A stretch of 64,000 bases of DNA. It comes from Candidatus Latescibacterota bacterium. GTDB lineage: Bacteria > Latescibacterota > UBA2968 > UBA8231. Under the pieces are notes generated by a model that saw only the letters and a program-made list of their open reading frames with translations, did no database searches and was not told the DNA's origin. The position numbers and the translations under genes were made by a program. The stretch's first letter is position 1. Every line of letters starts with the position of its first letter. Location of the stretch: contig OZ242318.1 of NCBI GenBank assembly GCA_965208105.1, forward strand, positions 2,464,001 through 2,528,000, written 5' to 3'. Shown here piece after piece: positions 24,480 through 61,838 of this stretch.

Positions 24480-24683
24480 TATAGGTAAAACGAGGCGCCT
24501 TTTTGGCTCTCGCGTCAAGGCGCCGAACACACCCAAGGGGCAGGGTAAGCTTGCTGATGATCGTTTGCAGGTCGTTTGACAGGGCTCGCAGTACGGTTTG
24601 GTTGCCTGGGGGCCCCTAGCGGGTCCAATCCGGTACTCGATGAGGCCAATCAGGACGCACTTCTCCCTACGGCTCACGGCGCC
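24480..24683 (-). mobile_element. ISCR/IS91-like remnant R1 (oriIS end)
   Basis: TATAGGTAAAACGAGGCGCCTTTTTGG...ACCCAAGGGGCAGGG...; shared with seven other end-region copies. Confidence 0.8.
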
Positions 24684-26122
24684 TGCAGCGGCGCTTCGTC
24701 GCCGGTGCGTTCCTGCCAGCGTGCGATCCTCCCTCTGAGATCGCGGATGCGCTCTTGCTGGCCCGGATCGTCGAAGCGGTTTATCGCCTCGTGCGGGTCG
24801 GTATTCAGGTCGAAGAGCTCGCACTGATCCTCCGGACTCAGGTTGAGTTTCCACCGGTCGGCGGAAATCACCGTCCGCCACGGCAACCCCAGCACGCGCC
24901 TGGTCTCTTCGTCCGCCGTGGTGAAGGGCGGCCCGGGACGGTTGTGCCCGCCGTGGCACTCGATGAAGACGTCCTCCTGCTCCAGACGCTCCTCGCCGCG
25001 CAAGACAGGGACGCGGCTCTGGCCCTGCAGCCCGCCCGGAACGGCCTCTCCGAGCAGATCCAGCAGCATCGGCACCAGGTCGATCTGGCTGAAGTTCCCG
25101 CGGATTCTCCTTCCCGCTCTCTGGAGCCACGGCACTCGAATTAAAAGCGGCACTCGCACCGCCTCCTCGTAGAGCACCCCCTTGGCGAAAATACCGTGGT
25201 CGCCCATCATATCGCCGTGGTCGCTGGTGAAGACCACGATGGTGTTCTCCGCCTGGCCGCTCTCCTCCAGCGCGTCGAGGATCGCGCCCATTGCCCGGTC
25301 CACTAAAGTCACCAGCCCCAGGTACTGCGCGCGCATCCTGCGGCACCCCGCCTCGGTGCTCAGGTTCTGCCCCTCCCACTCGGCCTGCATGAAGTAGCCG
25401 GCCAGCATCCGGTTCACCAGGGAGGCATTTTCCGCCGGCTTCTGCAGAAACTGTGGTCCCACGGGAATCTCGTTCGGATCGTACATATCGTCGAAGGGTC
25501 CGATGAAGGGCATGTGCGGCTCGAGCATATTGACGTAGAACACAAACGGCCGCCGCTCGCTTTCGCGCAGCAGTTGCGCCGTCTGCTGCCCGACGAAGGT
25601 TGCCTTGGTATAGGGTTCGTCTAATTTCGCGGCGAAGGGCCGGCTGAAGACCCGGGTGTCCCCCTGGTCCACGTCGGGCTCAAAGCCGTGCTCGACGAGG
25701 AAATGGTGGTAGTCGCTCAGGCGCGAACGATATTCCGGCTTCGAAAGGTGGGCCCGATACTTGTCGTCCAGACTCACCCAGTGCTCGAAGCCGTGCTGGG
25801 GAATGACCTCGTCGCCCAGGTGCCATTTCCCTATGTACGCGCAGAAATAATCGTCGTCCACCATCTCGGCGATCGTCTTTGTATCGGGTTTGAGCGCCAT
25901 ATTGTTCGACAGGCACCCCGTGGTGTGCGGGTAGAGCCCGGTCATAATCGTCGAGCGCGAGGGCGTGCAGATGGGCTGCGTCACGTACGCGCGCTCGAAG
26001 ACAAAGCTCTCCTCGGCCAACGCGTTGAGCCTGGGCGCTTCTACGAAGTCGTTGCCGTAGCACTTCAAGGTGTCGAAGCGCTGCTCGTCGGTGAAGATGA
26101 AGAGTAGATTGGGCTTGTCCAT
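24674..26122 (-). CDS. Formylglycine-dependent sulfatase
   Basis: KPNLLFIFTDEQR, CTPSR, GKWHLG, FTSDHG, ELFDLNTDPHE. Confidence 0.95.
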   Translation of the reverse strand: MDKPNLLFIFTDEQRFDTLKCYGNDFVEAPRLNALAEESFVFERAYVTQPICTPSRSTIMTGLYPHTTGCLSNNMALKPDTKTIAEMVDDDYFCAYIGKWHLGDEVIPQHGFEHWVSLDDKYRAHLSKPEYRSRLSDYHHFLVEHGFEPDVDQGDTRVFSRPFAAKLDEPYTKATFVGQQTAQLLRESERRPFVFYVNMLEPHMPFIGPFDDMYDPNEIPVGPQFLQKPAENASLVNRMLAGYFMQAEWEGQNLSTEAGCRRMRAQYLGLVTLVDRAMGAILDALEESGQAENTIVVFTSDHGDMMGDHGIFAKGVLYEEAVRVPLLIRVPWLQRAGRRIRGNFSQIDLVPMLLDLLGEAVPGGLQGQSRVPVLRGEERLEQEDVFIECHGGHNRPGPPFTTADEETRRVLGLPWRTVISADRWKLNLSPEDQCELFDLNTDPHEAINRFDDPGQQERIRDLRGRIARWQERTGDEAPLQAP

Positions 26123-26387
26123 GATCAGTACTCCACGGAATTCGGAGGATATGAGGCAAGGGGTGGAGTCATGGGATCACTTACCGGATCACCCAAGATA
26201 GAAAATTGTGCGGATGGTATCCGACTTGCGCGGAGAGTAGATCCCATGCAAAGCGGTGAATGAACGATGGCGAATCTTAATCTCTGTCGGACCAGATCGT
26301 TCTGGTTTAGTTTTCACCGTTTGTGGTAAGCGACCAACCATCCAGCCCGTCCTCTTCATCGGGTTGGGCAACTGAAAGGAACTGAAC

Positions 26388-27572
26388 ATGACTGCAGTAG
26401 GCGAAGGGGCAAAAGGCGAACGCGGACGGGTGCGCATCACCGGCATCAAGGCTATGGAGCTCAGGAATTCTACGGGGCAAAGCCTGGTGCGGGTGGAGAC
26501 CGACGCAGGTTTGTACGGCGTCGGCGAAGCAGGAGTCGCCGGTCCTGCGTGCAGGGCGAATCTGCAATGGCTCGAAAAAGTGCTCATCGGGGCCGACCCG
26601 CTCAACATCGACAAGCTCTATCACCAGATGCTGGGGCTGCAGCATTACTATCAGGCGCATGTGCCGACAGTAAGCGGCGTCGACATTGCGCTGTGGGACC
26701 TGGCTGGAAAGATCCTCAACCAGCCCGTTAGCCAGCTGCTGACCGGCCGCTATCGCGAGCGCGTCGAGATCTATTTTAACGGGTCGCCATCCGACTGGTC
26801 AGATCGCCCTGCCGTCGACGACTGGGTAGCCGAATTCCGCGCCCATCCCCACGGCTACCGGACGTTGAAATGTAGTTTCCCGAAGCCCGACGACGCGCTC
26901 CTCTCACGGCCCTTCGAAGCGACAGCACCAAGTCAATCGCTAAAAGCGAGTGACCTCAAAGTTATACGGGATGGATTCGAGACCATGCGCGACGCCCTGG
27001 GGTGGGATCTCGACTTCATCGTTCACTGTCACAACGAATGGGACGTGCCGACGGCTATCGGCCTTAGTCAGGCGCTGGAAGAGGCGCGTCCCATCTGGAT
27101 TGAGGATCCGCTATCGGTTTGGTTCAACGACGGCTACAAGGCGCTCAGAGCGGCATCGCGCGTGCCTATCTGCACGGGGGAAAAGATTCAGGGGTACCGC
27201 GATTGCTTCCCCTTTATCGTCGATGGCGGCATCGACGTGTTACACCCCGATCTGTGCTGGTGCGGCGGCATCAGCGGCGGTCGCAAGATTGCCGAGCTGG
27301 CCGATCACTACGGCCTGCCGGTGGCGCTGCACAACTGCGGTACGCTGGTGCACAATATGGCCAACGTCCATTTCGGAGCCTGTGTGCGCAATTTCAGCAT
27401 GAGCGAAACTCGACTCTACGAACGTCGGTACATCGCCGAGATGGGGGGGCTCGATGGCTTCGATCTGATCGACGGCAAAATGGCGGTGCCCAACGGGCCG
27501 GGACTGGGTATTGAACTGGTGCCCGAAGTATTGCGCGCCGAACTCAAGGAAGGCGAGCCTTTCTGGGAATGA
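26388..27572 (+). CDS. Mandelate racemase/muconate lactonizing enzyme family (acid-sugar dehydratase-like)
   Basis: GVDIALWDLAGK, WIEDP, PICTGE, HPDL..GGIS, PNGPGLGIEL. Confidence 0.9.
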   Translation: MTAVGEGAKGERGRVRITGIKAMELRNSTGQSLVRVETDAGLYGVGEAGVAGPACRANLQWLEKVLIGADPLNIDKLYHQMLGLQHYYQAHVPTVSGVDIALWDLAGKILNQPVSQLLTGRYRERVEIYFNGSPSDWSDRPAVDDWVAEFRAHPHGYRTLKCSFPKPDDALLSRPFEATAPSQSLKASDLKVIRDGFETMRDALGWDLDFIVHCHNEWDVPTAIGLSQALEEARPIWIEDPLSVWFNDGYKALRAASRVPICTGEKIQGYRDCFPFIVDGGIDVLHPDLCWCGGISGGRKIAELADHYGLPVALHNCGTLVHNMANVHFGACVRNFSMSETRLYERRYIAEMGGLDGFDLIDGKMAVPNGPGLGIELVPEVLRAELKEGEPFWE

Positions 27573-27689
27573 GTTTCCGTCCCCTGATCTACTCGTATGA
27601 AGCCTCGGCTTGCGGCCCGGGTACGATGTTGGCGCGGTCAGCGGCATTGTGGGCCAACACTCCGTGATCAGGTTAGTAGAGCTTCCTGC

Positions 27690-28520
27690 CTAGCGGATCT
27701 CTTGCAGCCCATTGAACAGGCAGTAGTGCTGCTCAACGCCCATCGCCTCCATCCAGGCGCGTACCTCCAGAGTCTGCCATGTGCCAGATCCCTTCCCCTT
27801 GCCGCTATTGTTGTCCCACAGCCACAACGGTGTGGGCCAGATGCAGCGTCTGGCCGCGACGGCCTCGTAGAACGCTCTCTGGACGCCGTTCTGGCCGTGA
27901 TGGGCCATCTGGACGTAGTCGGACTCGAGACGATTCCCGTACGGCCCCGCCAGGAGCTTGCGTCCGGCTTCCGCCCCCAGATCGGCGGGAAAGAGGACGG
28001 ATCGGGTCTCGTCCCGCACTCGCATCACCACACTCGAGTTGTTGATCGCGTTAACGGTGATCTCCGGGTTCTTGATGCCCAGCACCTCGAAGTGCACCCC
28101 ACCGAAGGCCAGCTCCTGGCCGAGTTCGAGCTCTGTCACCCCCCGCCCCGCAGCGGCCAACGCCTCATTGAGCTGGACTGTGGTCTCCACCCCGTCCTTC
28201 TCATGGGCCTCGACCCACGCCGTCGTGTTCAGTGAGCCATAGATCCGGTCTATCTGCAGATCTCCAGGCATTCTGAGGATCTCAATCAGCGCATCGACGT
28301 GGTCGAGGTGTTGGTGTGTGATGAACCAGGCGGTGACTCGGTTGCCAAGGGCGGCGAGAAAGCCCTTCAGATACCCGGCATCCTCGGTATAGCCTCCATC
28401 GATGGCGATGACATCGCCGTGCACTGTTCGAAGGACGTAGCTGTTCATCTGTTTGGGCGTCTGTGATGGCAGTTGCCAGAGCGTGAAGGTCTCCAAGTCA
28501 AAGCTCCTTTTGGTGGTCAT
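27690..28520 (-). CDS. Metallo-beta-lactamase-fold hydrolase (ComEC/Rec2-like)
   Basis: IDGG, THQHLDH, NNSSVV, LFPAD, QMAHHG. Confidence 0.85.
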   Translation of the reverse strand: MTTKRSFDLETFTLWQLPSQTPKQMNSYVLRTVHGDVIAIDGGYTEDAGYLKGFLAALGNRVTAWFITHQHLDHVDALIEILRMPGDLQIDRIYGSLNTTAWVEAHEKDGVETTVQLNEALAAAGRGVTELELGQELAFGGVHFEVLGIKNPEITVNAINNSSVVMRVRDETRSVLFPADLGAEAGRKLLAGPYGNRLESDYVQMAHHGQNGVQRAFYEAVAARRCIWPTPLWLWDNNSGKGKGSGTWQTLEVRAWMEAMGVEQHYCLFNGLQEIR

Positions 28521-28750
28521 GCCGACCTCTTCCCGTAGATGAATTGTAGGGAATCGGCGTTGTTCGGGGGCATTCGCAGTTTATGGGTGGCGGATCTCCG
28601 GAAACGGCCGCGCAGGGCTAGCGCGGATCAAATTTTTGGCGCCTGAACGCCGTTTCTATACAGCCGCTCAAAATAGGTAGACAGACTGCGCCCACGGAGA
28701 ATCAGGCGTAGTCGAATTCAGTCTGCGGCTGGGGTCGCGCGATGCCGAAG

Positions 28751-28795
28751 TATAGGTAAAATGAGGCACCTTTTTGGCCCTCTTGTCAAGGCGCC
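28751..28795 (-). mobile_element. ISCR/IS91-like remnant R2 (45-bp oriIS stub)
   Basis: TATAGGTAAAATGAGGCACCTTTTTGGCCCTCTTGTCAAGGCGCC. Confidence 0.75.
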
Positions 28796-28903
28796 TAGCG
28801 CGTCGATGAGCGTGTCTTGCAACAGGTGGAGCTGCTGATTGAGTACACGTAACCGCCGATGCCCGTCGGCGGACAGATGTAGAAGCAGGAGGCGCGGTTT
28901 CAC

Positions 28904-29461
28904 TTACCGGATCCGCTTCTCGAAACGAGCGAACCAGCGCTTCGTCGGGTGTTCTCCCAAAGGCTCGAACCCGCCATCCACGTAGTACTGCCGGAGCCTG
29001 TCGTTCGCAGCCATGCAGTCCAACCTTACGAATTCCTTCCCTTGACCGTGCGCAAGCTCCGCGACCTTCCGCAGTATTTGGTAGCCAAGCTGCTTTCCCG
29101 AAAACCGTCGCAGCACGGCCAGTCCGCTGACATACAGCGCTTCGCCGCGCCTGTCAGTCCACATATCACCGCCGTCCGTGCTGATCCGCAACACGCCGAC
29201 TGGTTCCGTCTGGCCTTGAACAATGTGCAGTTCTCCTGAGTCAATCCACTGATGCACTTCCGGTTCGGGCACCTGACGGGACCATTGTCCTCGGATCCCT
29301 TTGACATCGTGGAGCCAAGCACTCACATCGTTGTAGATCTGCGCCACCAGGGCGGAATGCTCAGAAAGAGCCGGACGGAAGCTCAGGCTCGTTTGATGTG
29401 GTCTTGCGCTATCAGCCAAGTCTACAGCAGTCTCAGATAGACGCCCTTGGCGATGCGCCAC
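28904..29461 (-). CDS. GNAT family acetyltransferase (start uncertain)
   Basis: LYVSGLAVLRRFSGKQLG, VRLDC..NDRLRQYY..GF. Confidence 0.85.
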   Translation of the reverse strand: MAHRQGRLSETAVDLADSARPHQTSLSFRPALSEHSALVAQIYNDVSAWLHDVKGIRGQWSRQVPEPEVHQWIDSGELHIVQGQTEPVGVLRISTDGGDMWTDRRGEALYVSGLAVLRRFSGKQLGYQILRKVAELAHGQGKEFVRLDCMAANDRLRQYYVDGGFEPLGEHPTKRWFARFEKRIR

Positions 29462-29467
29462 GGGCGT

Positions 29468-30460
29468 TCAGCCGGCCCCAAGGGCCGGCCACGGCACGGA
29501 TACGCCAAGCGGTCTGGCGATCTCTTCGAGTAGGCGACAGGTCTCCGTGGCCAGCGGGATCCCCTCTCGTTGGTAAGCCTGCTGTCTCTCGGCCTCGAGC
29601 ATGCCCGGCAGCAGGGCCCGATCCGTTCCCGGCATGGGACGCATCTGCGTGCACATCTCACCGACGAAGCGGTCCACTACCCCACCGAATTCAGACGCGG
29701 AGGTGAAGTGCTCGACGTCGATCGCCAGCACGAAGGCGCCGATGCCGGCGGCCGGCCAGGCAGGGTCAGCCTCCCGCGTGTAGCGGAGCATCTGCCCGCT
29801 CAGGCCGTCCCCGAGCAGCTTGGCTACCACCGTGAAGCCCAGACTCATGAAGAAGGCGGACGGCACCCGCTCGAACAGATCGAGATGCTGTTCTCGAAAG
29901 AGATTGGCGCAGCCGTCGACGATGATGGGCGGCCGGTCGCCGGCGGGGATGGCAAAGCTGATGGGACGGGAGCCCCACAGGGCGATGGGCAGGTCCGGGA
30001 AGTCGAAACCGGAGACGAGCCCTTGAACGGAGAAGCCGATACAGCCCGCCTCCGCACACATGCTCGTATATTGGCTGGCGGAGCCGTAGTGGCCTATGTG
30101 CTGCAGAGATCCGGCAGCCACCCCGCGATCCCGCGCCTTGCCGATGATGGTCTCGGTGACGCTCGCCGTCGGCACGTATCCGTAGCCGCCGTCACCGTCG
30201 ACGACGATCATCGCCTCTTCCTCGCACACGACCTGCACGGATGGTGCGGGATTGACCGTGCCCGCCCTCAAGTCCCTCACATAGCGCTCCAGCAACGGGG
30301 CGCCGTGGCTGTGGATTCCCCGTAGATCGGCCCACGTCAGGCGCGCGGCGATATGCTCTGCCTGTGCGTCCTCCAGGCCACAGGCCTCGAGACAGCTCTC
30401 CCCGAACTCCCGGTGAGCATCGGCTTCGACGCGGATGAAATCGACGGGCGGTTGATTCAT
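29468..30460 (-). CDS. Ldh_2 family (malate/L-lactate/sulfolactate dehydrogenase-like) oxidoreductase
   Basis: ADLRGIHSHG, VDGDGGYG, HYG, PISFAIP, LPG. Confidence 0.85.
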   Translation of the reverse strand: MNQPPVDFIRVEADAHREFGESCLEACGLEDAQAEHIAARLTWADLRGIHSHGAPLLERYVRDLRAGTVNPAPSVQVVCEEEAMIVVDGDGGYGYVPTASVTETIIGKARDRGVAAGSLQHIGHYGSASQYTSMCAEAGCIGFSVQGLVSGFDFPDLPIALWGSRPISFAIPAGDRPPIIVDGCANLFREQHLDLFERVPSAFFMSLGFTVVAKLLGDGLSGQMLRYTREADPAWPAAGIGAFVLAIDVEHFTSASEFGGVVDRFVGEMCTQMRPMPGTDRALLPGMLEAERQQAYQREGIPLATETCRLLEEIARPLGVSVPWPALGAG

Positions 30461-30597
30461 CGTCTACTCGTTGGGGCCGAGTGGGGCACGTTACCAGTTC
30501 GTTGGTTGGACATCCGGGAACGGCTCTCCTCTCCCATCACAGGTTTGATACCGACATCACTGCGGTGGCCGCCACCTCGGACCTGGTATCCGGAGGG

Positions 30598-30700
30598 TCA
30601 TGCCGAGGCCACCGTGAGCTCCCGCATCCTGTCCTCCGTCCAGCACCATGCCGAGTCCCGGACCTTCTGGCGGATACAGGTGGCTCTCCTCAGCCCGAAG
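30598..30700 (-). pseudogene. 3' fragment of an enolase-superfamily gene
   Basis: LRAEESHLYPPEGPGLGMVLD then frameshifted EDRMRELTVASA*; begins at the R3 oriIS junction. Confidence 0.55.
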
Positions 30701-30980
30701 TATAGGTAAAATGAGGCACCTTTTTTGCCCTCTTGTCAATGCGCCGAACACACCCAAGGGGCAGGGTAAGCTTGCAGATGATCGTTTGCATGGTCGTTTG
30801 ACAGGGCTCGCAGTACGGTTTGGTTGTCTGTGGGCCCCTAGCGGGTCCCATCCGACCACGGCGTTTTGAGCGCAAAGCAAAGCCGCTGCGAAGCGAGGAG
30901 GCGCAGGCGCCCTGAGGCCAGGGGCGGCCTGGCCACGTAGCGGCACAAGCGTTCGAGTCCTCGCCGGTCCCGGCCCGCGA
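30701..30980 (-). mobile_element. ISCR/IS91-like remnant R3 (oriIS end fused to a transposase fragment)
   Basis: Conserved end joined to a sequence encoding GRDRRGLERLCRYVARPPLASGRL...LKTPWSDGTR. Confidence 0.85.
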
Positions 30981-31110
30981 GGCGCAACCTCAAATCAGCG
31001 GACCGGGTGCCCGAGGTGGTTCCAGCGGATGGAAAATCTGGCAAGAGCTAGTCACGTCCCTGTCCATTGCGGGTCTTTCAGGTCAAACTCCCGTACTTGG
31101 AGCGATCGCT

Positions 31111-32601
31111 TTGACTGACATCTCACAACAGACCGCGGCGCTAGTGACTGCTGCCATCGACGGCGACGAGGCCTCATTCACCCGCCTGGTCGAAAACCAC
31201 AAGGACGCGGTCTTCGCAATCGCCCTGTCTCGGACAGGCGATTTCGACGCGGCCGGCGACATTGCCCAGGAGGTGTTCCTGCGCGCCTACCTCGGACTCG
31301 ACCGCCTAAAGGATCCGGCCCTGTTTTCAGGCTGGTTGCGAACGATAGTGGAAAACCGCTGCCGCACCTGGGTAGACCGGCGGCGACGCCAACCAGCGCG
31401 GGAGGTCTTCGATTCCACTGCTCCCCACTTGGCGGGCGACGATGCCCCGGACCGTGATCTCCGGCGCGCCGAGCGCCGCCGGGTCGTGCTGGATGCCATC
31501 GAGCGGCTGACGCCGAACACCCGGGAGACCATTGTCCTCCACTACCTGGAAGGAGTGCCGACCCCACAACTGGCGACCTTGCTGAGTATTTCCGAGGCGG
31601 CAGTGCGCCAACGTCTGCATCGAGGCCGCGAACAAATGAGAAGAGAGGTGACCCACATGATCGATGAAACCCTGCAGGACGAATCCCCAGGCGACACCTT
31701 TGCCGCCGAGCTGGAGAACCTGCTAGCCCGCAGTCGCACCCGCTTCGGTGGCGTGCGCTACCGCGATGCCGTGAGCGACCTGGAGCGCGCCGCCCAGTTG
31801 AAACCGGACGATCCAACGACGGCCCTGCTGATCGCCGATGCCTATACTTTTGCCCGCCCGCCGGAAGAGCTTGCGGAACAGCCGCGGGATGCCAGGCGGG
31901 CGATCGAGGTCCTCGACGAGGCCATCGCCAAGACCGACGGGAAAGACCGCCTGGTTTTGCGGCTCAAGCGGGCCTCTGTGAAAGCTGCGCAGGCGTTTGC
32001 CGGAGAGACCGGCTCGAGGATGCTGGCAGTGCTGAAAGAGAATCGCACCCTGCTCAAGGAAGCGGAGAAGACGACCCTGGAGCCCGTCGCCGTGATGGAG
32101 CTCGCCCGCCGCTGCGTCTTCGCCGGCCAGTCCGCAGAAGCAGTCGAGCTCTACGAGCGCCTGGGAAAGGAGAAGGGTTGGGAGAGCCTGATGCTGTCGG
32201 AGATCGGGATGGCCAAGGCGTCCAGCGGTGATGTGAGCGGCGCGATCGCAAGCTTCGAACACGCGGTCGCTTCCACCACCCAGGCCACCATGAAAGCTCT
32301 CAACGACGCCTACCGCGCAGCCCTCGGCGACGCCTACTGGTCATTCTGGGGGTCGGTGGAGATTCTCGAGGTCCGCCAGTGCCAGAACCACGCCTGGCTG
32401 GCCGGCCTGCGCACCGGGATGGGCGAGGCAGAGCGCGGCCACGCCCATCTGCGCAGCGCCGTCGAGCTGCTCGATAGCGAGGCAATGTCTCCGATGCGCG
32501 CCGTCCTGGCGCCGGAGATGGTGCGGCGTTTCGATCAGATGTTCCCGTTCCTCAGCGATGCGCCCGAACTGCAGACCCTGCGCGAGGAGTGGTTGGAGTG
32601 A
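31111..32601 (+). CDS. ECF sigma-70 factor with C-terminal TPR-like extension
   Basis: GDEASFTRLV, DIAQEVFLRAY, FSGWLRTI, region 4 IVLHYLEG..LATLLSISEAAVRQRLHRGR; helical repeats follow. Confidence 0.9.
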   Translation: MTDISQQTAALVTAAIDGDEASFTRLVENHKDAVFAIALSRTGDFDAAGDIAQEVFLRAYLGLDRLKDPALFSGWLRTIVENRCRTWVDRRRRQPAREVFDSTAPHLAGDDAPDRDLRRAERRRVVLDAIERLTPNTRETIVLHYLEGVPTPQLATLLSISEAAVRQRLHRGREQMRREVTHMIDETLQDESPGDTFAAELENLLARSRTRFGGVRYRDAVSDLERAAQLKPDDPTTALLIADAYTFARPPEELAEQPRDARRAIEVLDEAIAKTDGKDRLVLRLKRASVKAAQAFAGETGSRMLAVLKENRTLLKEAEKTTLEPVAVMELARRCVFAGQSAEAVELYERLGKEKGWESLMLSEIGMAKASSGDVSGAIASFEHAVASTTQATMKALNDAYRAALGDAYWSFWGSVEILEVRQCQNHAWLAGLRTGMGEAERGHAHLRSAVELLDSEAMSPMRAVLAPEMVRRFDQMFPFLSDAPELQTLREEWLE

Positions 32602-32634
32602 GGCGCGCCTCGCCGGTCAGGGCCCGCGATCCGC

Positions 32635-32724
32635 GAGTCCTTGGCCGGCAAAAAGGTAGTTGGCATCTTCAGCGGTGGGAACGCGCCCGCCGACCACTTA
32701 GCGAGGATTTTGCAAAATGTCTAA
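32635..32724 (+). pseudogene. 3' fragment of a threonine/serine dehydratase-like gene
   Basis: ESLAGKKVVGIFSGGNAPADHLARILQNV*; its stop overlaps the next start. Confidence 0.55.
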
Positions 32725-34939: not shown

Positions 34940-34949
34940 GGAGGGGAGG

Positions 34950-37318: not shown

Positions 37319-37322
37319 GGAT

Positions 37323-45580: not shown

Positions 45581-45589
45581 GTGCTCGCG

Positions 45590-53050: not shown

Positions 53051-53392
53051 TCAAGCTTCATGCTCCAGGGCAGCGAGGCGCCTATCGATCTGCTTCGCTT
53101 TCAGGAAGAAAAGGGAAGGGTTGCGAGACTCCTTGGATAGCTCAATCCCGTTTTCGCGTTCCAAGATCTCGATCTCCCTAACAAGCCCATCGATTATCCT
53201 TCCCGAAGAAAATGCACTGACGCTCAGCCTGCGAAGACTCCGCACCCGCTCTTTGGCATTTCCCGAGGCAATCTGCTCTAATCTGGAAGCCAGTCCCTTC
53301 AACTTTTCTCTTCTTCGATCCAGATCCCACATGAAGTACACGATGAGTGAGAGAGCGGCAAGAAAACCTAAAGCAGCTGTCATGGTTTGCAT
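53051..53392 (-). CDS. Hypothetical protein with N-terminal TM helix
   Basis: AAGGGG RBS; hydrophobic N-terminus followed by charged helices; low-GC patch. Confidence 0.45.
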   Translation of the reverse strand: MQTMTAALGFLAALSLIVYFMWDLDRRREKLKGLASRLEQIASGNAKERVRSLRRLSVSAFSSGRIIDGLVREIEILERENGIELSKESRNPSLFFLKAKQIDRRLAALEHEA

Positions 53393-53582
53393 TCCCCTTA
53401 AGTCTTATCAATGAAATAAACCCCTGATCATTGCAGGGGGAAAGACAAAACTGCAGGGGAGTAAACCCTCTTCAACAAAAAAAATTGGGAGCGGAATCAA
53501 CAGACCAATGCGCATTGTCATTTCAACGCATCAATCGCACAGAAGCGCATAGAGAATGCGTGCCCGAAACAATCGCTGCCGC

Positions 53583-55070: not shown

Positions 55071-55196
55071 GGTTTTTCTCCTCTTCTAGTTGCCACTGTA
55101 AAGCCCGCTTTGATTTCCGGGACCAGTGAAACATACCATTGCCATTGTATTGGTCAAGCGCTTTCCGGCGATCACCGAACACCCCGAACTTTTTGC

Positions 55197-55225
55197 TTGA
55201 CTTTGCCATTCGGGCAACGTAGGAT
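55197..55225 (+). promoter_or_regulatory. Sigma70-like promoter of the ankyrin operon
   Basis: TTGACT-17 nt-TAGGAT. Confidence 0.6.
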
Positions 55226-55231
55226 TCCGTT

Positions 55232-55357
55232 TAGTGCGCTGCAGAGCGCCACCCGTCCGCGGCAAGGGAATAACGCCCATCTGTAATCAGACCTTCTCGT
55301 ACCTCCTTTCGGCCTGTACCAAGCGGACAACGGGCACAATGCGAAAGGCGGTGCTGC
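55232..55357 (+). promoter_or_regulatory. Candidate structured 5' leader with an RBS-sequestering pseudoknot
   Basis: CCCGTCCGC (55252-60) can pair with GCGGA..CGGG (55323-34); CCTTTCG (55305-11) can pair with CGAAAGG (55342-48), which overlaps the SD. Confidence 0.4.
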
Positions 55358-56716
55358 ATGACCCCCTCCAATTCTCGTTCCGTCAAGGAACTCCCGTCCA
55401 ATCCCAGCCTCGGCCTGTTGGCGAACCTCGCCAAGGAGCTCCGCAAGGACCATCGATCCGGCGCCGGGGAGGCGTTTCGCCGGTTAAAGGCCGGACACCC
55501 GCGATTCGCCTCATTCACCGACTCTCAGCTGGCGACCATAGATCTCACGCTGCGCGATGCCCAGCTGGTCATCGCTCGGGAGTACGGCTTCGACAACTGG
55601 GTCGAGCTCAAGCGCCAGGTTGTGGCGCTCCTGGAAGGGGGCGCCGCAGACGTCGCTATGAAGGATCTGATCCAGGCGGCCAACAACGGCGACGACGCCA
55701 CTGTGCGCCGGGTGTTGGAGGACTTTCCGGAAATCATCGACGAGCGCGGCGGAGAGTCGACCCGAACCGCATTGCACTTCGCCTCCATGAACGGTCACAA
55801 AACAGCCGTAGAGTCACTGCTCGGGCGTGGCGCGGATCCGAACATCCGCTGCGAGGGAGACAACGCCACGCCGCTTCACTTCGCCGCGGAGAAGGGGCGC
55901 CTCGACATCGTTGAACTGTTACTGAGCCACGGCGCGGATCCGAACGGTCACGGCGATGTACACGGATTGGATGTCATCGGCTGGGCTCTCTGTTACGAAC
56001 GGGTGTGGGTCGAGGTGGCTGAGTGCCTTCTGGCGCACGGTGCGCGGCACAACATCTTTTCGGCGGTGGCGATGGGGGATACGGAGGAAATAACGAGGTT
56101 GGTGTCGGTTTACCGCGACGCGCTGGAAAAGCCGATGGTGGTTTGGGAAGAACGGAAAAGTCCCCTACATCTGGCAGTGGTCAAAAAACAGCCACTAGCG
56201 GTGGCCAAGCTGATCGAGCTCGGCGCCGGTCTTGAGATCACCGATGTGAACGGGCTCACCCCGTTGGACCGCGCTGCGCTAAGCTCCGCATCGGAATGCA
56301 CTCGCTTGCTGATAGAGGCTGGGGCGCAGGTCCCGTTGCCGGCGGCTTTCGGTTTGGGACAAGAGGATCGGATTGAAACGCTCATGAGCGAGGACCCCGA
56401 CTGCTTGAAACCCGGGGGAAGGTGGGAGCGCCTCATGGGCATTGCCGTCCAGTTTGCGCGAGGAGAGGTCATCGAATCGCTGTTGAGATGGGGTGCTTCG
56501 GTAGACCAGATCATCGATTCCGAAGCTTTCGGCACGAGGGGGTATACGCCGCTCCACGAGGCGGCCTGGTTCGGCAATATGGAAGCGGTCGAGGTGCTGG
56601 TTGAACATGGTTCCAGTCTCCAGGCCAAGGACGCGACCTACGACAGCACTCCACTCGATTGGGCCGATGTGGCCAAGCGGGAAAAGGTCGCCGAGTTCTT
56701 GAGGGGGCAGTCATGA
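55358..56716 (+). CDS. Ankyrin repeat protein with N-terminal helical domain
   Basis: LPSNPSL..L.NLAKEL...LRDAQLVIAREYGFDNW; multiple TPLH/TALH...GADPN repeats. Confidence 0.92.
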   Translation: MTPSNSRSVKELPSNPSLGLLANLAKELRKDHRSGAGEAFRRLKAGHPRFASFTDSQLATIDLTLRDAQLVIAREYGFDNWVELKRQVVALLEGGAADVAMKDLIQAANNGDDATVRRVLEDFPEIIDERGGESTRTALHFASMNGHKTAVESLLGRGADPNIRCEGDNATPLHFAAEKGRLDIVELLLSHGADPNGHGDVHGLDVIGWALCYERVWVEVAECLLAHGARHNIFSAVAMGDTEEITRLVSVYRDALEKPMVVWEERKSPLHLAVVKKQPLAVAKLIELGAGLEITDVNGLTPLDRAALSSASECTRLLIEAGAQVPLPAAFGLGQEDRIETLMSEDPDCLKPGGRWERLMGIAVQFARGEVIESLLRWGASVDQIIDSEAFGTRGYTPLHEAAWFGNMEAVEVLVEHGSSLQAKDATYDSTPLDWADVAKREKVAEFLRGQS

Positions 56717-56883
56717 CAAAAATACCGGTATTTTCAGTGCGCCGAGCGGCTCGACTCTACGCGACCAACAAAGATGCAGCCGCCGCGCTCGGAATCGACA
56801 TGCGCAGTTTTGCGCGCATCTGCCGACGCCATGGCATCCCAACGCCGTACGTGAGAAAACGGCGGCGCAGGCGCGAAGTTTGA
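56713..56883 (+). CDS. Small basic HTH protein (RWP-RK-like pattern)
   Basis: ATGA overlap with the ankyrin stop; RAARLYATNKDAAAALGIDMRSFARICRRHGIPTPYVRK. Confidence 0.7.
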   Translation: MTKIPVFSVRRAARLYATNKDAAAALGIDMRSFARICRRHGIPTPYVRKRRRRREV

Positions 56884-56933
56884 GTGCCAGCGCTGATCTA
56901 GACTGCCAACACGCCCCGTTTAAGGAGATGATC

Positions 56934-57076
56934 ATGTCCTCTCAAATGGTGGAAAACATCATTCCGATTCTGCCCTGTGGTGATTTTCAGGCCAATCTGG
57001 AGTACTATCAACGCGCCCTTGGGTTCAAACTCGAATGGACCCACGAAGATTTATTCGGCTGCGTATCCCGCGATGG
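56934..57076 (+). pseudogene. 5' fragment of a glyoxalase/bleomycin-resistance protein
   Basis: AAGGAG RBS; IPILPCGDFQANLEYYQRALGFKLEW...VSRDG, cut by R7. Confidence 0.75.
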
Positions 57077-57538
57077 ACGGTTTGGTTGTCTGTGGGCCCG
57101 TATCGGGTCCAATCCGGTACTCGATGAGGCCCTTCAGGACGCACTTCTCCCTACGGCTCTCGGCGCCGGGAGCGAATCGCGGATGAGATCAGGCGGCGAA
57201 CTCGAACTGCGGCTGCGGCGGGGCCCTCGGCGGAGGCACCGCCGGCAGCCCTACCCCCTCCAGATAGGTCCGGATCGGTCAGGGCGGCGACGATCCTCAG
57301 GCGCCCGCCACAGGTCGCGCATGCGCTGAGGTCGGAGGAAAACACCCGCGCCAGCAGGGCCGCCCACCCCAGGCGATGGGTGCAGGACGGAGCGCTCGTA
57401 TCGCCGTCCGCCGCCGGCTCGGCAACCGGCTTGGTCGGCACGATGCGGCCGCGGTCGCGGGCACGGGGGGCCAGGACCCCGTGGCAGCGCAGGAGATGGA
57501 GCCGGGGCGGGGGGACCAGAGCCGCCAGCTTCTCCAGC
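57077..57538 (-). mobile_element. ISCR/IS91-like remnant R7 (transposase C-terminal third, oriIS lost)
   Basis: LEKLAALVPPPRLHLLRCHGVLAP...WAALLARVF..D.SACATCGGRLRIVAALTDP. Confidence 0.88.
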
Positions 57539-58062
57539 GTCTGGATTGTCGGGTTTCCACTTGCGTCTGTGTCAAACTTTCCGTGGCAGTTCCAGTTGTA
57601 GATCAGGCGAAGGGAACGGACATCTCCGATGGCCTTTGATGCCAACAGTTCTCGAATCTTAAGTACGCAGGGGCTGAAGCGATAGCAAAATGCCGTATAC
57701 AGGGACACGCCGGCCGCGTCTGTAGCCGCAACCATCTCGGCGGCCTCGCCGCGATCCATGGCCAGCGGCTTTTCGCAGAGGATTGGCAAACCACATCGGG
57801 CCGCATCCAACACGTTTTCTTTGTGGCAGGGGGCGGGTGACGCGATGGCTACAGCCTCAATGCCGGAGTCAAAGAACATCCCGGCGTCGGTAAACGCTTC
57901 CGGTATGCCATGCGGCTTTTGCGTGCGCTCGAGTGCATCCGCTCTGGGATCGTAGATTGCGTGCAAGCTAAGTCCGTCTGTTCGCTGAATGGCCGGAATA
58001 TGGCCGTAGTCCGCAACGGTACCACAGCCCATCAGTCCGATGCGTCGCGGCTGTCCAGTCAT
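57539..58062 (-). pseudogene. Gfo/Idh/MocA oxidoreductase, 3'-truncated and fused in frame to the R7 transposase fragment
   Basis: IGLMGCG, LCEKPLA, YRF.P; the C-terminal domain is replaced after PTIQT. Confidence 0.8.
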
Positions 58063-58079
58063 GAGGTCTCCTCGCAGAA

Positions 58080-58132
58080 CTCATAGATGACCTGCGGCCA
58101 GATTAACCGGCCAAGTTCAGGTCATCTATGAG
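58080..58132. repeat. Perfect 15-bp inverted repeat
   Basis: CTCATAGATGACCTG-23 nt-CAGGTCATCTATGAG. Confidence 0.8.
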
Positions 58133-58153
58133 GCCAGCTTCAGTTCGCTGGGC

Positions 58154-58543
58154 TCACTCGTGGTCAATCGACTCTCGGTAAGAGCGCCAGCCCCTGAATT
58201 CGGTGATCTCTTTGTGCCCTTCGCAAAGGACGGGTTCGCCAATGACCCCCAATACGCGTTCGCCGCTAGCAAGTTCTACTTTACCGACACTGAGTCCAAC
58301 TGCTTCGCGGTTCAAAATGGCAACAAATCCAGTCGCTGTCAGTTGCCACACTTCAAGTGCTATGGCTGCACCGCCTTTGCTGACCCGAACCATGGCAGGA
58401 AACTGGTCGTCGATGGACCAAAGGCGGTAACGTTTGGCCGTTTGGTCGTTGCGAAGGAACTCACCACCTGCATCGAACATGGCATGGTTACTGCGCATAC
58501 CGCTCATCAATCCGCCGTTTACTGCAAGCAGTACTCGGTCCAT
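58154..58543 (-). CDS. Allophanate hydrolase C-terminal / gamma-glutamylcyclotransferase-fold protein
   Basis: LAVNGGLMSG, YRLWSI..PAM, LEVWQL, GLSVGKVEL..G, ITEFRGWRSY. Confidence 0.8.
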   Translation of the reverse strand: MDRVLLAVNGGLMSGMRSNHAMFDAGGEFLRNDQTAKRYRLWSIDDQFPAMVRVSKGGAAIALEVWQLTATGFVAILNREAVGLSVGKVELASGERVLGVIGEPVLCEGHKEITEFRGWRSYRESIDHE

Positions 58544-58589
58544 ATGCAAGTCTCCTCATCACTCTTTGCTAATAACCTTGGAGCCGTAA

Positions 58590-58699
58590 CCAGCCAGCCA
58601 CCGAGGGCAAAGCCGCCGAATGGTATTCTCCTCCGGGCCGCCAGGAGCCTGCATGACGCCATCCAACGTGAGGAAAGCCGTTGCGGTCAATTCACCCAT
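58590..58699 (-). pseudogene. 5' fragment of a RibD-C/dihydrofolate-reductase-family gene
   Basis: MGELTATAFLTLDGVMQAPGGPEE then frameshifted GGFALGGW. Confidence 0.65.
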
Positions 58700-58730
58700 A
58701 TGCCTGCTACCCCTGCAGTGGTTGTTTTGC

Positions 58731-58817
58731 GCCCAACGCAGAGATGACCTGTTGGCGGACCACCAGCCATTTCATGTGATCAGTTCGTAGCCGACTCATC
58801 TCGGCATATGTCGAGGC
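58731..58817 (-). other. Degenerate attC-like site
   Basis: Minus strand GCCTCGAC..GAGATGA...TCATCTC..GTTGGGC, between a stop codon and the next gene start. Confidence 0.45.
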
Positions 58818-58838
58818 GATCGACCGGCGCCTCCACAC

Positions 58839-59885
58839 TCAGGCTCCGGTGAGGCGATGGACGTTACGCAGGCGCACGGTCGTGAGTCCACAGGAACATG
58901 GATCGTCAACAAGAGTGGCACCATCGCCGTTTGCCAGCCGAAAGAGCTGTGAGCCTCGGTGAACTTCTGATTGGCCAGTGCTGTCTGCTCCAGAGAGACG
59001 CGTGACAACGAGCCGGCCAGACTGCCCGCTTTCCACCCGCACACCCAGATCATCGACGACCTCTACAAGAACGTAACCTTGAGCAACGTGATAGTCACCG
59101 GGATGATCCGGGCACGATATGGCGAAGACTCCGAACTCAGATGAACCGTACAAGTTGCTTACGGACTCGACTCCCTGGCCCTTGGCCCTGCTCACAGTGT
59201 CTTCTGTGAATCCCCCGCTGGATCCCACCCACCAGCGTACGGCAAACTGCTTGAGCAAGTCCGGATTACCGGCTAGAAGCTCGGCCAAACCAACACCCTT
59301 ACCTCGCAAAGTTTGCTCCGGAAGAACGAGCGTATCGAACTCGAACAGTGACATCTGCTCGGCCGTCGAGAATTGCTCTTCAGGATGATGACTCCGGTCG
59401 TAGACCGTTCCGCCCAGTCGCTGGAGGGCCGCATGATACATTGGCCCCGTCAGATGTCCCTGGCCGTAGCCGTTGAAGACTGTCGGCGACTGCATCGGAC
59501 TCTGTGGCCGGAGCATACGCGCGGCCGACACCACCAACCCCGCCCAATCGGTCTTCGTCCACATGGAAACGGTCGATCGGCCTGTGGTCCCACTCGTCCA
59601 GCGACAGACTTCCACTTGGCCGCTGCTGCTTGCTGGCAACAGCTCGCCTGGAGGCAAGCCGCGGAGCTCTGCCTTCTCCAGAAGAGGGAAGCGCCCAAGA
59701 TCGGACAGCTCCCCAAGCTGGCTCTCATCGATCGAGACCGCTTCAAGACGCTCGGTCCAAAAGGGGACACTGTCCCGCATGAAGGCGATCTGGCGTCGTA
59801 CGGCATCGACGAGAGCAGCGTCGCGATCTGCGGGTTCGCAGGTGTCCAGCGAGGGATCGTCTAGTCGCATACTGACTCGCATCAA
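58839..59885 (-). CDS. Phenylacetate-CoA ligase-like (PaaK family) adenylate-forming protein
   Basis: FPLLEKAELR, WTSGTTGR, NLYGSSE, VLVEVVD, GRLVVT, DPCSCG. Confidence 0.75.
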   Translation of the reverse strand: MMRVSMRLDDPSLDTCEPADRDAALVDAVRRQIAFMRDSVPFWTERLEAVSIDESQLGELSDLGRFPLLEKAELRGLPPGELLPASSSGQVEVCRWTSGTTGRSTVSMWTKTDWAGLVVSAARMLRPQSPMQSPTVFNGYGQGHLTGPMYHAALQRLGGTVYDRSHHPEEQFSTAEQMSLFEFDTLVLPEQTLRGKGVGLAELLAGNPDLLKQFAVRWWVGSSGGFTEDTVSRAKGQGVESVSNLYGSSEFGVFAISCPDHPGDYHVAQGYVLVEVVDDLGVRVESGQSGRLVVTRLSGADSTGQSEVHRGSQLFRLANGDGATLVDDPCSCGLTTVRLRNVHRLTGA

Positions 59886-60688
59886 TCCAGTGGAAGACTC
59901 GCCTCGAAGCGCTCGACTTCGGGATAACTCGTGTTGCCGCGCAAAAGGCGACCCAGGCGGGGCTTGCGATTGTTGTAGACCTCGACGGCGTCAGCATCAG
60001 CATACCGCAAAAATAAGATGCGTCGGTCATGATCTTTTGATCGGTTACCTTCAGAGTGATGGAGTAGGTGACAGTGTAAAAACAAACATTCACCGGCCTT
60101 CATCGGGATCGGAATCGAGCCGCTTTCCTCTACCTCCAATTCGACGGGACGTAAGGCACGGCGATCTTCATCAGAAAGATCGAATTCCCTCTGCCCTTCC
60201 TTATGGCTGCCGGGAATGAGCCACAAGCAACCGTTTTCGAGGTTCGCGTCATCTAGAGTGGTCAGGCAACTTATGGCGTTGCTGGGATCCAGCTCACCGT
60301 AGACATTGTCCTGGTGCCAAGCGAACGGCATCGTGTTGCCGCGCATCTTGAACGTCAATTGTGACGTCGCGGCCTTGATGTTTGGCCCCAACACTTGCTC
60401 TGCAGCGTCCACCATAGGCCCACTGAAATAATACTTGCGGACCACGTCGGACTGGTGATGGATGTCGGGCAAAAGGGCGTTCTGTAGCCATGTCTTGTTC
60501 GGATCAAAGGGCCCCTTCTCAGCGACCCAGGCTTCCATGACCTGACCCAGCATTTGCTCTAAACCCTTGTTCGTCAGAGTTCTTCCGACATTCAAATAGC
60601 CCTGCTCAGAATACTGTTCCAATTGCTGACCCGTGAGCTTGGGATAGATGAATAGATCGGAATGTCGTCGGCTAGAGAGTTCGGCCAT
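59882..60688 (-). CDS. PhyH family Fe/2OG dioxygenase
   Basis: WHQD, DDANLENGCLWLIPGSH, GECLFLHCHLLHHS.GN. Confidence 0.9.
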   Translation of the reverse strand: MAELSSRRHSDLFIYPKLTGQQLEQYSEQGYLNVGRTLTNKGLEQMLGQVMEAWVAEKGPFDPNKTWLQNALLPDIHHQSDVVRKYYFSGPMVDAAEQVLGPNIKAATSQLTFKMRGNTMPFAWHQDNVYGELDPSNAISCLTTLDDANLENGCLWLIPGSHKEGQREFDLSDEDRRALRPVELEVEESGSIPIPMKAGECLFLHCHLLHHSEGNRSKDHDRRILFLRYADADAVEVYNNRKPRLGRLLRGNTSYPEVERFEASLPLD

Positions 60689-60690
60689 AG

Positions 60691-60753
60691 GCGTTAATTT
60701 TGGGTGTTCAGCGGCGGCGAGAAGCGCCGTCCGGCTGCTGTAACTAGTTGTGC
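60691..60753 (-). other. Degenerate short attC-like site
   Basis: Minus strand GCACAAC-TAGTTA-CAGCAGCCGGACGGC..GCCGCCGCTGAAC..ATTAACGC; overlaps the upstream stop and ends 2 nt before the next ATG. Confidence 0.5.
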
Positions 60754-61430
60754 GAAATCAGTCTCTGCTCGATGCGCCTGACGGTGCCAAGCTTTCCCAA
60801 AGCCAGCGCATTGAAACTATCCAATTCGTAGGGCCAATCATTGGCGAGTAATCGCGCGAATCGATGGCACTCCATGTGAAAGTTCAGCACCTCGGAATCA
60901 TCCCTTACTCCAAACTTCCTACCGTAGGGAGTTCGCTTAAACGCTGATAGATGCTCCTTGAAACGCACGCCTCGCTCTTCAGCAAGTTTGGCAATTCTAT
61001 CTAGCCAATCGGGTTGCTCCAAAAAGATCAGATACGGACAACAGGGACGAATGGCGTCAACAAAGCGACGATAATAATCTCTGCAATCATCGCGCGTGCC
61101 AAGCATCTTGAGCATGTTTCCGATGGTCAGATGGAAAGGATATCCTTCCATGACCACGCAGAGGTCTCCACTTCGGACTGTGTCAACCAATGCTGACGTC
61201 TTTTTCAGGATGCGTCTGATAAACCTTTGTGAATCGTATGGCGCCTCGATCACCTCATTCTCAATTGCACCATCCCCCCAAGTCCAAAACGAATTCAGGG
61301 GGTTGTCGTGTTCGTTGTAGAATTCGACCTTCGTGCCGATCTGCGCGATCTTAGAGTGCTTGAGCGCCTCGACGGTAGTGGTCTTTCCTGCACCCGACAG
61401 TCCTTCAATGAAAACCAACCTTGAATTCAT
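60744..61430 (-). CDS. P-loop NTPase / thymidylate-kinase-like protein (cassette-like, lower GC)
   Basis: LVFIEGLSGAGKTT; start at 61430 or 61442. Confidence 0.7.
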   Translation of the reverse strand: MNSRLVFIEGLSGAGKTTTVEALKHSKIAQIGTKVEFYNEHDNPLNSFWTWGDGAIENEVIEAPYDSQRFIRRILKKTSALVDTVRSGDLCVVMEGYPFHLTIGNMLKMLGTRDDCRDYYRRFVDAIRPCCPYLIFLEQPDWLDRIAKLAEERGVRFKEHLSAFKRTPYGRKFGVRDDSEVLNFHMECHRFARLLANDWPYELDSFNALALGKLGTVRRIEQRLISHN

Positions 61431-61529
61431 TTGTAGCCTCATGACTCGGCCTATATCTCGGTGGCGAATCGGGCTTCGGTGCGGAGGTAGCTGCGCCATC
61501 CCCCTGGCACCTTCGCAAGGATCGCTAAG

Positions 61530-61838
61530 TATAGGTAAAATGAGGCACCTTTTTGGCCCTCTTGTCAATGCGCCGAACACACCCAAGGGGCACAGGGTAA
61601 GCTTGCTGATGATCGTTTGCAGGTCGTTGGGCAGGGCTCGCAGTACGGTTCGGTCAGGGCCCGTCGCAGGCGCTGACCCGAGCGTGCCCCGGTGGCGATG
61701 AGTCCTCGCACCGAAGCCGCGGTGAGAGCCGCCAGCACGGGCTCCTCGGCGGCGAGCGGATCGGCTTGAGTGTCGTCGAGCAGGCCGTGTCGGCTACACA
61801 GGCGGATGATGAGGCGCGCACTCGTCTCCACGATCTGC
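61530..61838 (-). mobile_element. ISCR/IS91-like remnant R8
   Basis: oriIS end joined to a central transposase segment IVETSARLIIRLCSRHGLL...LAALTAASVRGLIATGARSG. Confidence 0.8.

Follow-up and report, generated by a model that had tools for sequence, protein, structure and literature searches.

Co-oriented ori-end remnants of an ISCR-like insertion sequence separate gene blocks in a Latescibacterota chromosome

INTRODUCTION

In a 64,000-nt stretch of the chromosome of a Candidatus Latescibacterota bacterium (GenBank assembly GCA_965208105.1, contig OZ242318.1, positions 2,464,001 to 2,528,000; hereafter the window), short pieces of one insertion sequence (IS) of the IS91/ISCR type lie between blocks of unrelated genes, and all of these pieces face the same way. 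The question that this locus raises is how such an ordered arrangement could have formed. A preliminary description of the window had proposed that nine remnants partition 37 kb into captured, often truncated genes. It had further proposed that end fragments of the element (oriIS stubs) are reusable handles that build a polar, integron-like array, with the transposase supplied in trans. We find that the remnants belong to a longer array that occupies the same place in a second species, and the evidence favors its growth by repeated addition of gene blocks at resident stubs.

IS91-family elements move by rolling-circle replication with an HUH/Y2 transposase. Gene capture by ISCR/IS91 elements has been described almost exclusively in short antibiotic-resistance regions of plasmids, which typically carry two to four ISCR copies, and the formation of ISCR/IS91 composites has so far been argued from few copies at a time. 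In the composite structures described for ISCR elements, whole or truncated co-oriented copies bracket foreign genes, and rolling-circle transposition as well as recombination are held responsible (PMC7722449, PMC13393415). IS91, IS801, and IS1294 are reported to start at a fixed ori end and to fail in termination in 1-14% of events, when flanking DNA is carried along (PMC13181058). Truncated IS801 copies that keep the right (ori) end are described as common near accessory genes (PMC3189936). Elements of this type, capture from one end, and gene modules bracketed by ISCR copies are all established.

The window (G000:C1:2464001-2528000) is part of a source genome (G000) assembled as one contig of 4.85 Mb. 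Public sequencing runs that contain this stretch carry sponge or marine metagenome labels, and part of the stretch is present in 20 of the 23 runs listed, from nine studies. The sister genome (G001) comes from a different species of the same genus and is a single contig of 5.9 Mb.

RESULTS AND DISCUSSION

Identity of the repeated element

The window contains seven copies of a 21-nt end motif, all on the plus strand (24483, 28754, 30704, 34633, 37715, 47460, and 61533), against a chance expectation of 0.00 from 100 shuffles. Repeat searching gave the same seven-copy family together with longer partial families. The copies share a sharp left border, where NAAG is followed directly by TATAGGTAAAA, and have ragged right borders.

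As had been noted from the window, no whole transposase is present: a tblastn search of the source genome with the 476-aa protein of an intact copy gave 32 high-scoring segment pairs (HSPs), the longest of 168 aa, and Pfam Y2_Tnp found only five partial matches across the genome. Among the 40 open reading frames (ORFs) of window 23.5-64 kb that were run against Pfam, the sole transposase signal is a Y2_Tnp fragment in remnant 5 (37326-38171, minus strand). The intact parent that had been sought is absent from the source genome; one copy stands in the corresponding array of the sister genome. Its 476-aa transposase carries Zn_Tnp_IS91 (PF14319, 73.5 bits) and Y2_Tnp (PF04986, 101.1 bits), both above their cut-offs. 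The motifs HVHVL, LERLCRYVARPP, and LLRYHGVLAPRA can be read directly in the translation. We take HVHVL to be the HUH motif and the other two to be the tyrosine motifs, with the catalytic residues presumably among them. The LCRYxxRP motif expected of this family lies at residue 311. Two window fragments span this part of the protein, 30844-30984 (residues 300-346, LCRY included) and 37848-38030 (residues 288-348).

The best NCBIfam model for the intact transposase is ISCR_clade_Ia (354.3 bits, below the cut-off of 925), and transpos_IS91 is likewise below its cut-off (103.9 vs 125 bits). Over 91% of its length, the protein shows ∼40% identity to a 509-aa ‘IS91 family transposase’ that adjoins sul2 on an IncC plasmid. 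By these sequence comparisons, the transposase is a separate lineage nearest the ISCR clade. The family is common in metagenomes, with 6217 proteins at E ≤ 0.001 among 8000 candidates scored, and few names are attached to these homologues (Latescibacteria, Ardenticatenia, and similar).

The copies in the sister genome end uniformly ∼228 nt past the stop codon at …CCTATAC and start ∼105-160 nt before the ATG. This ori tip, which appears as TATAGG… on the opposite strand of the window (the transposase sense there is the minus strand), is common to two subfamilies. The two ends of the element are unlike each other, and an alignment of ter ends from independent copies contains a 5-bp hairpin (GTGAA-AATC-TTCAC; GTGAG/CTCAC in one copy). 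Because of the transposase domains, the NCBIfam ranking, the plasmid homologues, and the copy ends, we assign the element to the ISCR side of the IS91 family, with a length of ∼1.8 kb, and the repeats of the window to its oriIS ends, as the preliminary description had supposed. Positions within the element (IS) are numbered here from the intact copy, so that the tetranucleotide beside the element takes 1-4 and the ori end starts at 5.

Extent, clustering, and orientation

When mapped against the intact copy, all nine remnants recognized earlier proved to be pieces of this one element in one orientation, and the terminal motif was found at the seven said to retain it. The nine sites stood, but the proposed end at 61838 did not. 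The series, which we call array A, runs from 24477 to ∼86650 in window coordinates, and numbers beyond 64000 lie past the window end. It comprises 22 HSPs at 15 loci (24477-86653, 62 kb), six of them past the window end, and 15 of 15 are co-oriented. The ori end is kept at 12 of these loci and is missing at 45411, 57077, and 85920.

A 229-nt stub query matched 27 places in the source genome. The whole-element query gave 51 matches, 47 of them derived from the IS: 22 in array A, 17 in a second series at 4302185-4384709 (array B), and eight elsewhere. All 22 pieces of array A share one orientation and all 17 of array B the other. Arrays A (62 kb) and B (82 kb) hold 39 of the 47 pieces in 3% of the genome. 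The copies are strongly clustered and locally co-oriented, and the genome-wide check thus spoke for the preliminary description and not for random placement. Array B consists partly of a subfamily that has a different last 170 nt and the same …CCTATAC tip, and one of its ori ends, read by eye, lies inside an apparent GNAT gene.

Matches to the element were obtained in eight of the 41 genomes searched, the source genome included. Four others (the sister genome and three relatives designated G010, G016, and G018), each assembled in one or two contigs, have at least nine matches apiece, and among the matches listed their copies form same-strand clusters. Fragmented assemblies would hide such arrays.

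Replication direction was considered as a cause of co-orientation and was ruled out. Cumulative GC skew in the source genome places the terminus at ∼0.39 Mb and an ill-defined origin at 2.2-3.0 Mb; array B and a small cluster at ∼1.0 Mb lie on opposite skew arms and share one orientation. Along the chromosome of the sister genome, orientation changes between neighboring arrays at least four times, so replication direction cannot set their orientation.

An orthologous array in a sister species

The sister genome carries an array of 17 remnant loci at 1736111-1805146, all 17 co-oriented and all 17 with an ori end. One copy is intact, and the last copy, which lacks the internal segment IS 1005-1458, is nearly whole. 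Both arrays have the same flanking genes (rhodanese and GNAT on the left; PhyH, DUF2330, SfsA, and Lhr on the right). Seven segments (14.1 kb) are common to both arrays, follow one another in the same sequence, and match at 97.1-99.4% identity; the left flanks at four stub positions are identical. Identity between the species is 91.6-95.7% in the left flank and 84.1-88.9% in the right flank. The higher identity of the array tract (window 24685-67179 vs 1741033-1760106 of the sister genome) suggests a recent exchange between the species.

Whole-block differences adjoin stubs at three or more internal positions. Blocks found only in the source genome are 30981-34625, 38027-61526, and 67262-85919, and those found only in the sister genome lie at 1735.6-1741.0 kb and 1761.9-1803.8 kb. 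Between the two species, blocks are gained or lost as stub-bounded units. The polar, integron-like growth once proposed is not borne out, as the differences fall at internal positions and not at one end.

The stubs themselves differ between the lineages. A CA insertion is common to six stubs of the source genome (61533, 67097, 70775, 76160, 79168, and 82691), four of which differ by only 0-2 of the first 122 nt, and is found in none of the 17 stubs of the sister array over the same 122 nt. The cargo between CA-type stubs has no close homologue in the sister genome or in G010, G016, or G018 (best match 78%). The stubs of the sister array are 0-5 nt from its own intact copy over the first 122 nt, and most of its private cargo is not in the source genome. 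Each lineage thus has its own new stubs in company with new cargo, at the shared locus and in one direction. This pattern suggests, from the sequences compared, that array growth continued after the species split, and it fits the earlier proposal that stubs are sites of addition.

Orthologous stubs are unequally eroded. Remnant 2, reduced to IS 1-49, corresponds to a copy at 1746372 of the sister genome that retains IS 1-220 and 1353-1431, and remnant 5 (IS 8-157 and 623-794) corresponds to one at 1753423 that retains IS 2-1021. Deletion therefore continues in both lineages.

Junctions and possible traces of flank capture

The bases next to the ori ends were compared at 26 motif-bearing copies, 12 from array A and 14 from the sister array, some of which are orthologous or duplicated pairs. 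NAAG precedes 20 of the 26 (GAAG 13, AAAG 3, TAAG 3, CAAG 1), and TAAA, AAAA, GAAA, or AAAT precedes the other six. On the transposase strand, NAAG reads 5'-CTTN directly past the ori end. In IS91, IS801, and IS1294, target tetranucleotides of the CTTG/GTTC type are reported to adjoin oriIS (PMC13181058), and the ori ends thus have the target feature of the IS91 family.

Several remnants have internal deletions with two sides that overlap by 4-12 nt, and the joints between stub and cargo look like microhomology deletions. Premature termination, such as has been shown for IS801 (PMC3189936), was also considered as a source of the short stubs and was ruled out, because the 15 inner junctions share no tetranucleotide.

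Two duplications in the arrays resemble one-ended capture. On its ter side, the intact copy of the sister genome carries a 421-nt copy (98.3% identical) of the PhyH gene end that lies next to the array's terminal copy. The second involves a 432-nt piece of an MR_MLE gene, present in both genomes on the ter side of remnant 9. The part of the whole gene that is copied there begins directly past CAAG (27137-27140), as expected if the element had formerly been inserted at that point with its ter side toward the fragment. Both copies fit one-ended flank capture, although recombination is another possible source.

The 3' end of the PhyH gene occurs three times in the sister genome (1733280-1733535, 1761893-1762315, and 1805146 onward), once at each array border and once behind the intact element, and the left-border copy is the older. 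The single copy of this end in the source genome is closest to the left-border copy (94% vs 89% for the right-border copy).

An outward promoter, such as has been reported for ISCR1 (PMC13393415), was examined as a reason for retention of the stubs. The result was mixed and the idea was not adopted. With crude ORF picking, an ORF starts on the same strand within 400 nt downstream of 10 of the 12 ori ends of the source genome, compared with 29% of random positions; in the sister genome, the values are 6 of 17 and 28%. A sigma-70 scan of 24300-38200 found three sites against 2.6 expected, none within a stub. The sequence TTGACA lies 36-41 nt from the ori tip, and the second subfamily reads TTGACA-17-CATAGT by eye.

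A model for growth of the array and its alternatives

We consider it rather probable that gene blocks linked to ori ends were repeatedly added at resident stubs, by the transposase or by homologous recombination, and that microhomology deletions then removed the transposase. The locus would be a long-lived chromosomal docking region, kept at the same place in two species. Units that start with an ori end and carry neighboring genes on the ter side would have been added again and again, in one direction, at resident copies. In one possible route, the transposase would insert such a unit at a resident junction of ori end and tetranucleotide. In another, homologous recombination would integrate a circle of rolling-circle origin into a resident stub and give the same head-to-tail product. 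Subsequent deletions at short microhomologies would have taken away the transposase gene and the ter end, leaving ori stubs between the blocks. Transposase action and recombination of circles have both been invoked for ISCR structures (PMC7722449).

We infer that blocks arrived linked to ori ends and that they docked at resident copies, because random insertions should face both ways, orientation is not linked to replication, and the remnants are almost only ori ends. We still infer, too, any mobilization of the stubs themselves as handles, as opposed to whole elements that inserted and then decayed. The array of the source genome is now inert. With no intact family member in that genome it is frozen at present, and the supply of transposase in trans that the preliminary description envisaged does not hold, whereas an intact copy is in the array of the sister species.

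Several observations weigh against growth by docking. A search of the source genome revealed no donor for any block, and capture by this element was therefore never directly observed. Neither a free circle joining a unit end to ori nor an insertion paired with its empty site was seen. The 15 inner junctions have no common tetranucleotide, and the target-like GAAG occurs at only one of them (38026), where it is part of an 8-nt overlap (GCGCGAAG, 38019-38026) common to the IS and the cargo. With inner ends that lack the expected tetranucleotide, each junction between stub and cargo needs a separate deletion. The duplicated MR_MLE piece ends in GAATGA, not NAAG. Fold energies of the two element ends are no better than those of shuffles (z scores of +1.36 and +0.71 for the two strands of ori, and −0.71 and −1.20 for ter). 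For single blocks that are present in one species and absent in the other, such as 30981-34625, loss from the sister genome by recombination between stubs fits equally as well as gain in the source genome. Last, short-read contigs of four public runs stop within stubs, so the evidence for block order comes from the single-contig assembly and from synteny with the sister genome.

Alternatively, the genes of the island could have arrived by other means, while whole or abortive elements inserted often, decayed, and never carried blocks. We regard this as unlikely. In its favor, most cargo genes are intact, with the insertions between genes; NAAG at the ori ends is equally expected from simple insertions, and only two IS-linked duplications of cargo were found. 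Right-end fragments of IS801 of 229, 360, and 679 nt are reported to insert on their own, and the same account ascribes most genomic IS801 fragments to rearrangement, not to one-ended transposition (PMC3189936). However, independent insertions would face one way at 15 of 15 and 17 of 17 loci with probabilities of only 2^-14 and 2^-16 if orientation were random, and the orientation is independent of the replichore. Nearly all remnants are ori ends, a ter-proximal piece being present at one of the 15 plus 17 loci. In both species, moreover, lineage-specific stub variants coincide with lineage-specific cargo, and the inner ends of the stubs do not have the ter-like tetranucleotide of self-mobile mini-fragments.

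A different possibility, which we judge to be improbable, is that a few old insertions left repeats and that the array then changed by stub recombination and tract exchange, with the machinery of the element idle. The contrast in identity between shared blocks and flanks points to recent tract exchange, and stub-to-stub recombination can produce the presence or absence of blocks. Alternative joints at stubs also occur in a few contigs of other samples (27572 to 28747 in run X1; 34638 to 35342 in runs X1 and X5), where the shorter side is only 28-54 nt. Recombination between repeats nevertheless deletes or duplicates; it does not import single-copy cargo with a lineage-specific stub type, and the sister array keeps an intact, probably active copy with near-identical daughter stubs. 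Even the array itself could be false if repeats had led the assembler to stitch together blocks from elsewhere or from other strains, but this is very hard to credit. The source genome is a metagenome-type assembly with an estimated contamination of 8%, and short-read contigs end inside the stubs. Yet the stubs are just 49-550 nt long and lie within one contig, and Logan contigs of the four runs cross the flank-to-ori and stub-to-cargo joints of the first five stubs and cover the blocks at 95-100% identity. In run X15, error-free contigs cover each of the first five stubs on either side, and several of these stubs are also covered by other studies. The sister genome, an independent single-contig assembly, reproduces the flanks, the seven segments in order, and the four stub positions with identical left flanks.

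Growth by docking can be extended to a broader proposal, which we offer only tentatively: oriIS stubs could be a self-extending docking platform in sponge-associated bacteria, a rolling-circle counterpart of the integron, through which related species collect and exchange accessory genes typical of symbiosis. Any stub would be able to receive a further ori-led unit, either through an enzyme encoded by a copy in that cell or by recombination. The cargo typical of symbiosis would be the sulfatases, ankyrin-repeat proteins, serpin, PhyH/TauD dioxygenases, and GNATs.

Comparison with known systems

The array resembles the ISCR1 and ISCR2 structures of plasmids, integrative and conjugative elements, and complex class 1 integrons in its HUH/Y2 transposase, its distinct oriIS and terIS, and the co-oriented copies around foreign genes. 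It differs in that the transposase falls below both NCBIfam cut-offs and is ∼40% identical to the plasmid copies. A further difference is its chromosomal setting in a sponge-associated bacterium, where 15-17 remnants span 62-69 kb and occupy one site in both species. Unlike the cargo of ISCR resistance regions, the genes carried are metabolic and of host-interaction type, with no antibiotic-resistance module. With IS91, IS801, and IS1294 the array shares a fixed ori end beside a CTTG/GTTC-type tetranucleotide and truncated ori-end copies near accessory genes. Self-mobile IS801 fragments, however, end in a ter-like tetranucleotide, whereas the stubs of array A have an intact ori at 12 of 15 loci and such an inner end at one of 15. 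IS801 fragments are moreover described as scattered (17 truncated copies across closed P. syringae genomes and plasmids, five with an intact right end), whereas the array is ordered and co-oriented.

Like integron cassette arrays, the array has short conserved sites, all in one direction, between unrelated accessory genes, and it gains and loses genes among close relatives. The separators, by contrast, are transposon ends of 49-550 nt rather than cassette sites, the blocks are 2-19 kb long, often with several genes on both strands, and change takes place at several positions, not at one attI end. No integrase family was found among 85 ORFs of window 1-100 kb (≥90 aa, chosen by length), and no attC-type site was seen. 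Helitrons, which also belong to the rolling-circle HUH class, are reported to capture fragments of host genes when a terminator is missed (PMC4778049), but they are found in eukaryotes and show no sequence relationship at the level of this comparison; the likeness is an analogy only.

Literature searches, which did not extend to subscription journals, found no account of a chromosome in which ori stubs form a long, ordered, co-oriented array that keeps its place between species and is still turning over, and no such arrays of IS91/ISCR ends in sponge symbionts. At this locus, the process can be followed as a natural time series outside the clinic, with 15-17 ordered ends, an intact copy, lineage-specific additions, and turnover of blocks. 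Docking, if true, would be a second general way besides integrons to stack accessory genes at a fixed place, and it would help to explain how host-interaction genes are put together and traded among sponge symbionts, whose genomes carry much mobile DNA. Both an intact transposase and stubs exist in nature, so a direct test is possible.

Cargo blocks and neighboring genes

Table 1. Remnants, cargo blocks, and the duplicated gene piece, in window coordinates
Feature	Position	Strand	Description	Sister genome (G001)
Remnant 1	24477-24690	-	ori end, IS 2-215; TAAA before TATAGG	same left flank at 1736111
Remnant 2	28747-28795	-	ori end only, IS 1-49; shortest stub	ortholog at 1746372
Remnant 3	30697-30980	-	IS 1-157 + 623-758; internal deletion, 10-nt overlap	same left flank at 1748682
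Remnant 4	34626-34959	-	IS 1-142 and 141-238, split by a 94-nt miniature inverted-repeat transposable element	
Remnant 5	37715-38026	-	IS 8-157 + 623-794; ori tip changed, TCC for TAT	ortholog at 1753423, same left flank
Remnant 6	45411-45604	-	IS 1526-1716, transposase codons 1-45 and leader; without ori end	
Remnant 7	47454-47851	-	IS 2-317 + 559-635	
Remnant 8	57077-57538	-	IS 118-592, transposase C terminus and 3' region; without ori end	
Remnant 9	61527-61838	-	IS 2-127 (CA type, specific to the source lineage) + IS 829-1021	
Block 1	24691-28746		sulfatase, MR_MLE enolase-type enzyme, metallo-beta-lactamase-fold protein	97.2-99.2%
Block 2	28796-30696		GNAT, Ldh_2 dehydrogenase	97.4%
Block 3	30981-34625		ECF-type sigma factor fusion, PcfJ-like protein	not in array
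Block 4	34960-37714		DUF6785/DUF6784 protein	97.1%
Blocks 5-7	38027-57076		enclose remnants 6 and 7 and an IS630-like element	not in array
Block 8	57539-61526		truncated GFO_IDH_MocA, AMP-binding-like, PhyH dioxygenase, AAA_16	not in array
Block 9, start	61839-64000		continues to 67090, past the window end	99.1-99.4%
MR_MLE 3' fragment	61837-62267	+	432 nt; ter-ward of remnant 9	present
Matching 3' part of intact MR_MLE gene	27141-27572	+	98% identical to 61837-62267	

Most cargo ORFs give full-length Pfam matches to ordinary enzymes and binding proteins. Some of the genes are clearly truncated, as the preliminary description had it, but ‘often’ was an overstatement. The clear cases are the FGGY kinase (N-terminal truncation, adjoining another IS), the GFO_IDH_MocA ORF (fused in frame to remnant 8 at 57538), the AAA_16 ORF (at 61527, its start extends into the stub), and the MR_MLE fragment. 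The cargo of blocks 5-7 includes a 509-aa ORF, HD, TauD/GBBH, GNAT, an FGGY kinase, a serpin, MatE, an aminotransferase, an ankyrin-repeat protein, and others. Remnant 6, which is embedded in this stretch, falls ∼65 nt short of the true ter end. The 509-aa ORF (38092-39618, minus strand) has no Pfam match and gives a weak tblastn match (31%, E 1e-4) to transposase residues 331-461.

Apart from an unrelated IS, the cargo of array A is single-copy in the source genome, with paralogues at no more than 79% identity. Some of it recurs in other arrays of the sister genome, beside remnants and in the same orientation relative to them. For example, 38019-39554 is 98.6% identical to 5397958-5399493 of the sister genome, which adjoins a diverged remnant, and 53590-55381 matches at 92% within an array at 3.70 Mb. 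The window contains no tRNA gene, and integration at a tRNA was rejected.

Other mobile elements have also entered the region. The 94-nt miniature element inside remnant 4 (34768-34861) has terminal inverted repeats that resemble the end of the IS630-like element. The latter (43546-44709, 1164 nt; HTH_32, HTH_29, and related domains) adjoins the 5'-truncated FGGY kinase gene (42286-43566, minus strand). Eight more full-length copies in the source genome are 99.6-100% identical to it, so the IS630-like element is probably active.

To the right of array A, between its last remnant and PhyH, a UPF0150 (HicB-like) ORF and a small ORF lie on the minus strand at window coordinates 86848-87215 (L034 4848-5215), where the ter-side half of the element would otherwise lie. 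To the left of the array, ∼12 kb of lower G+C content (11000-23300) is not in the sister genome. This segment contains a multihaem cytochrome ORF and two tandem ∼3.9-kb units (74-98% identical), each with a ∼1000-aa ORF followed by an IS3-type HTH_Tnp_1 ORF.

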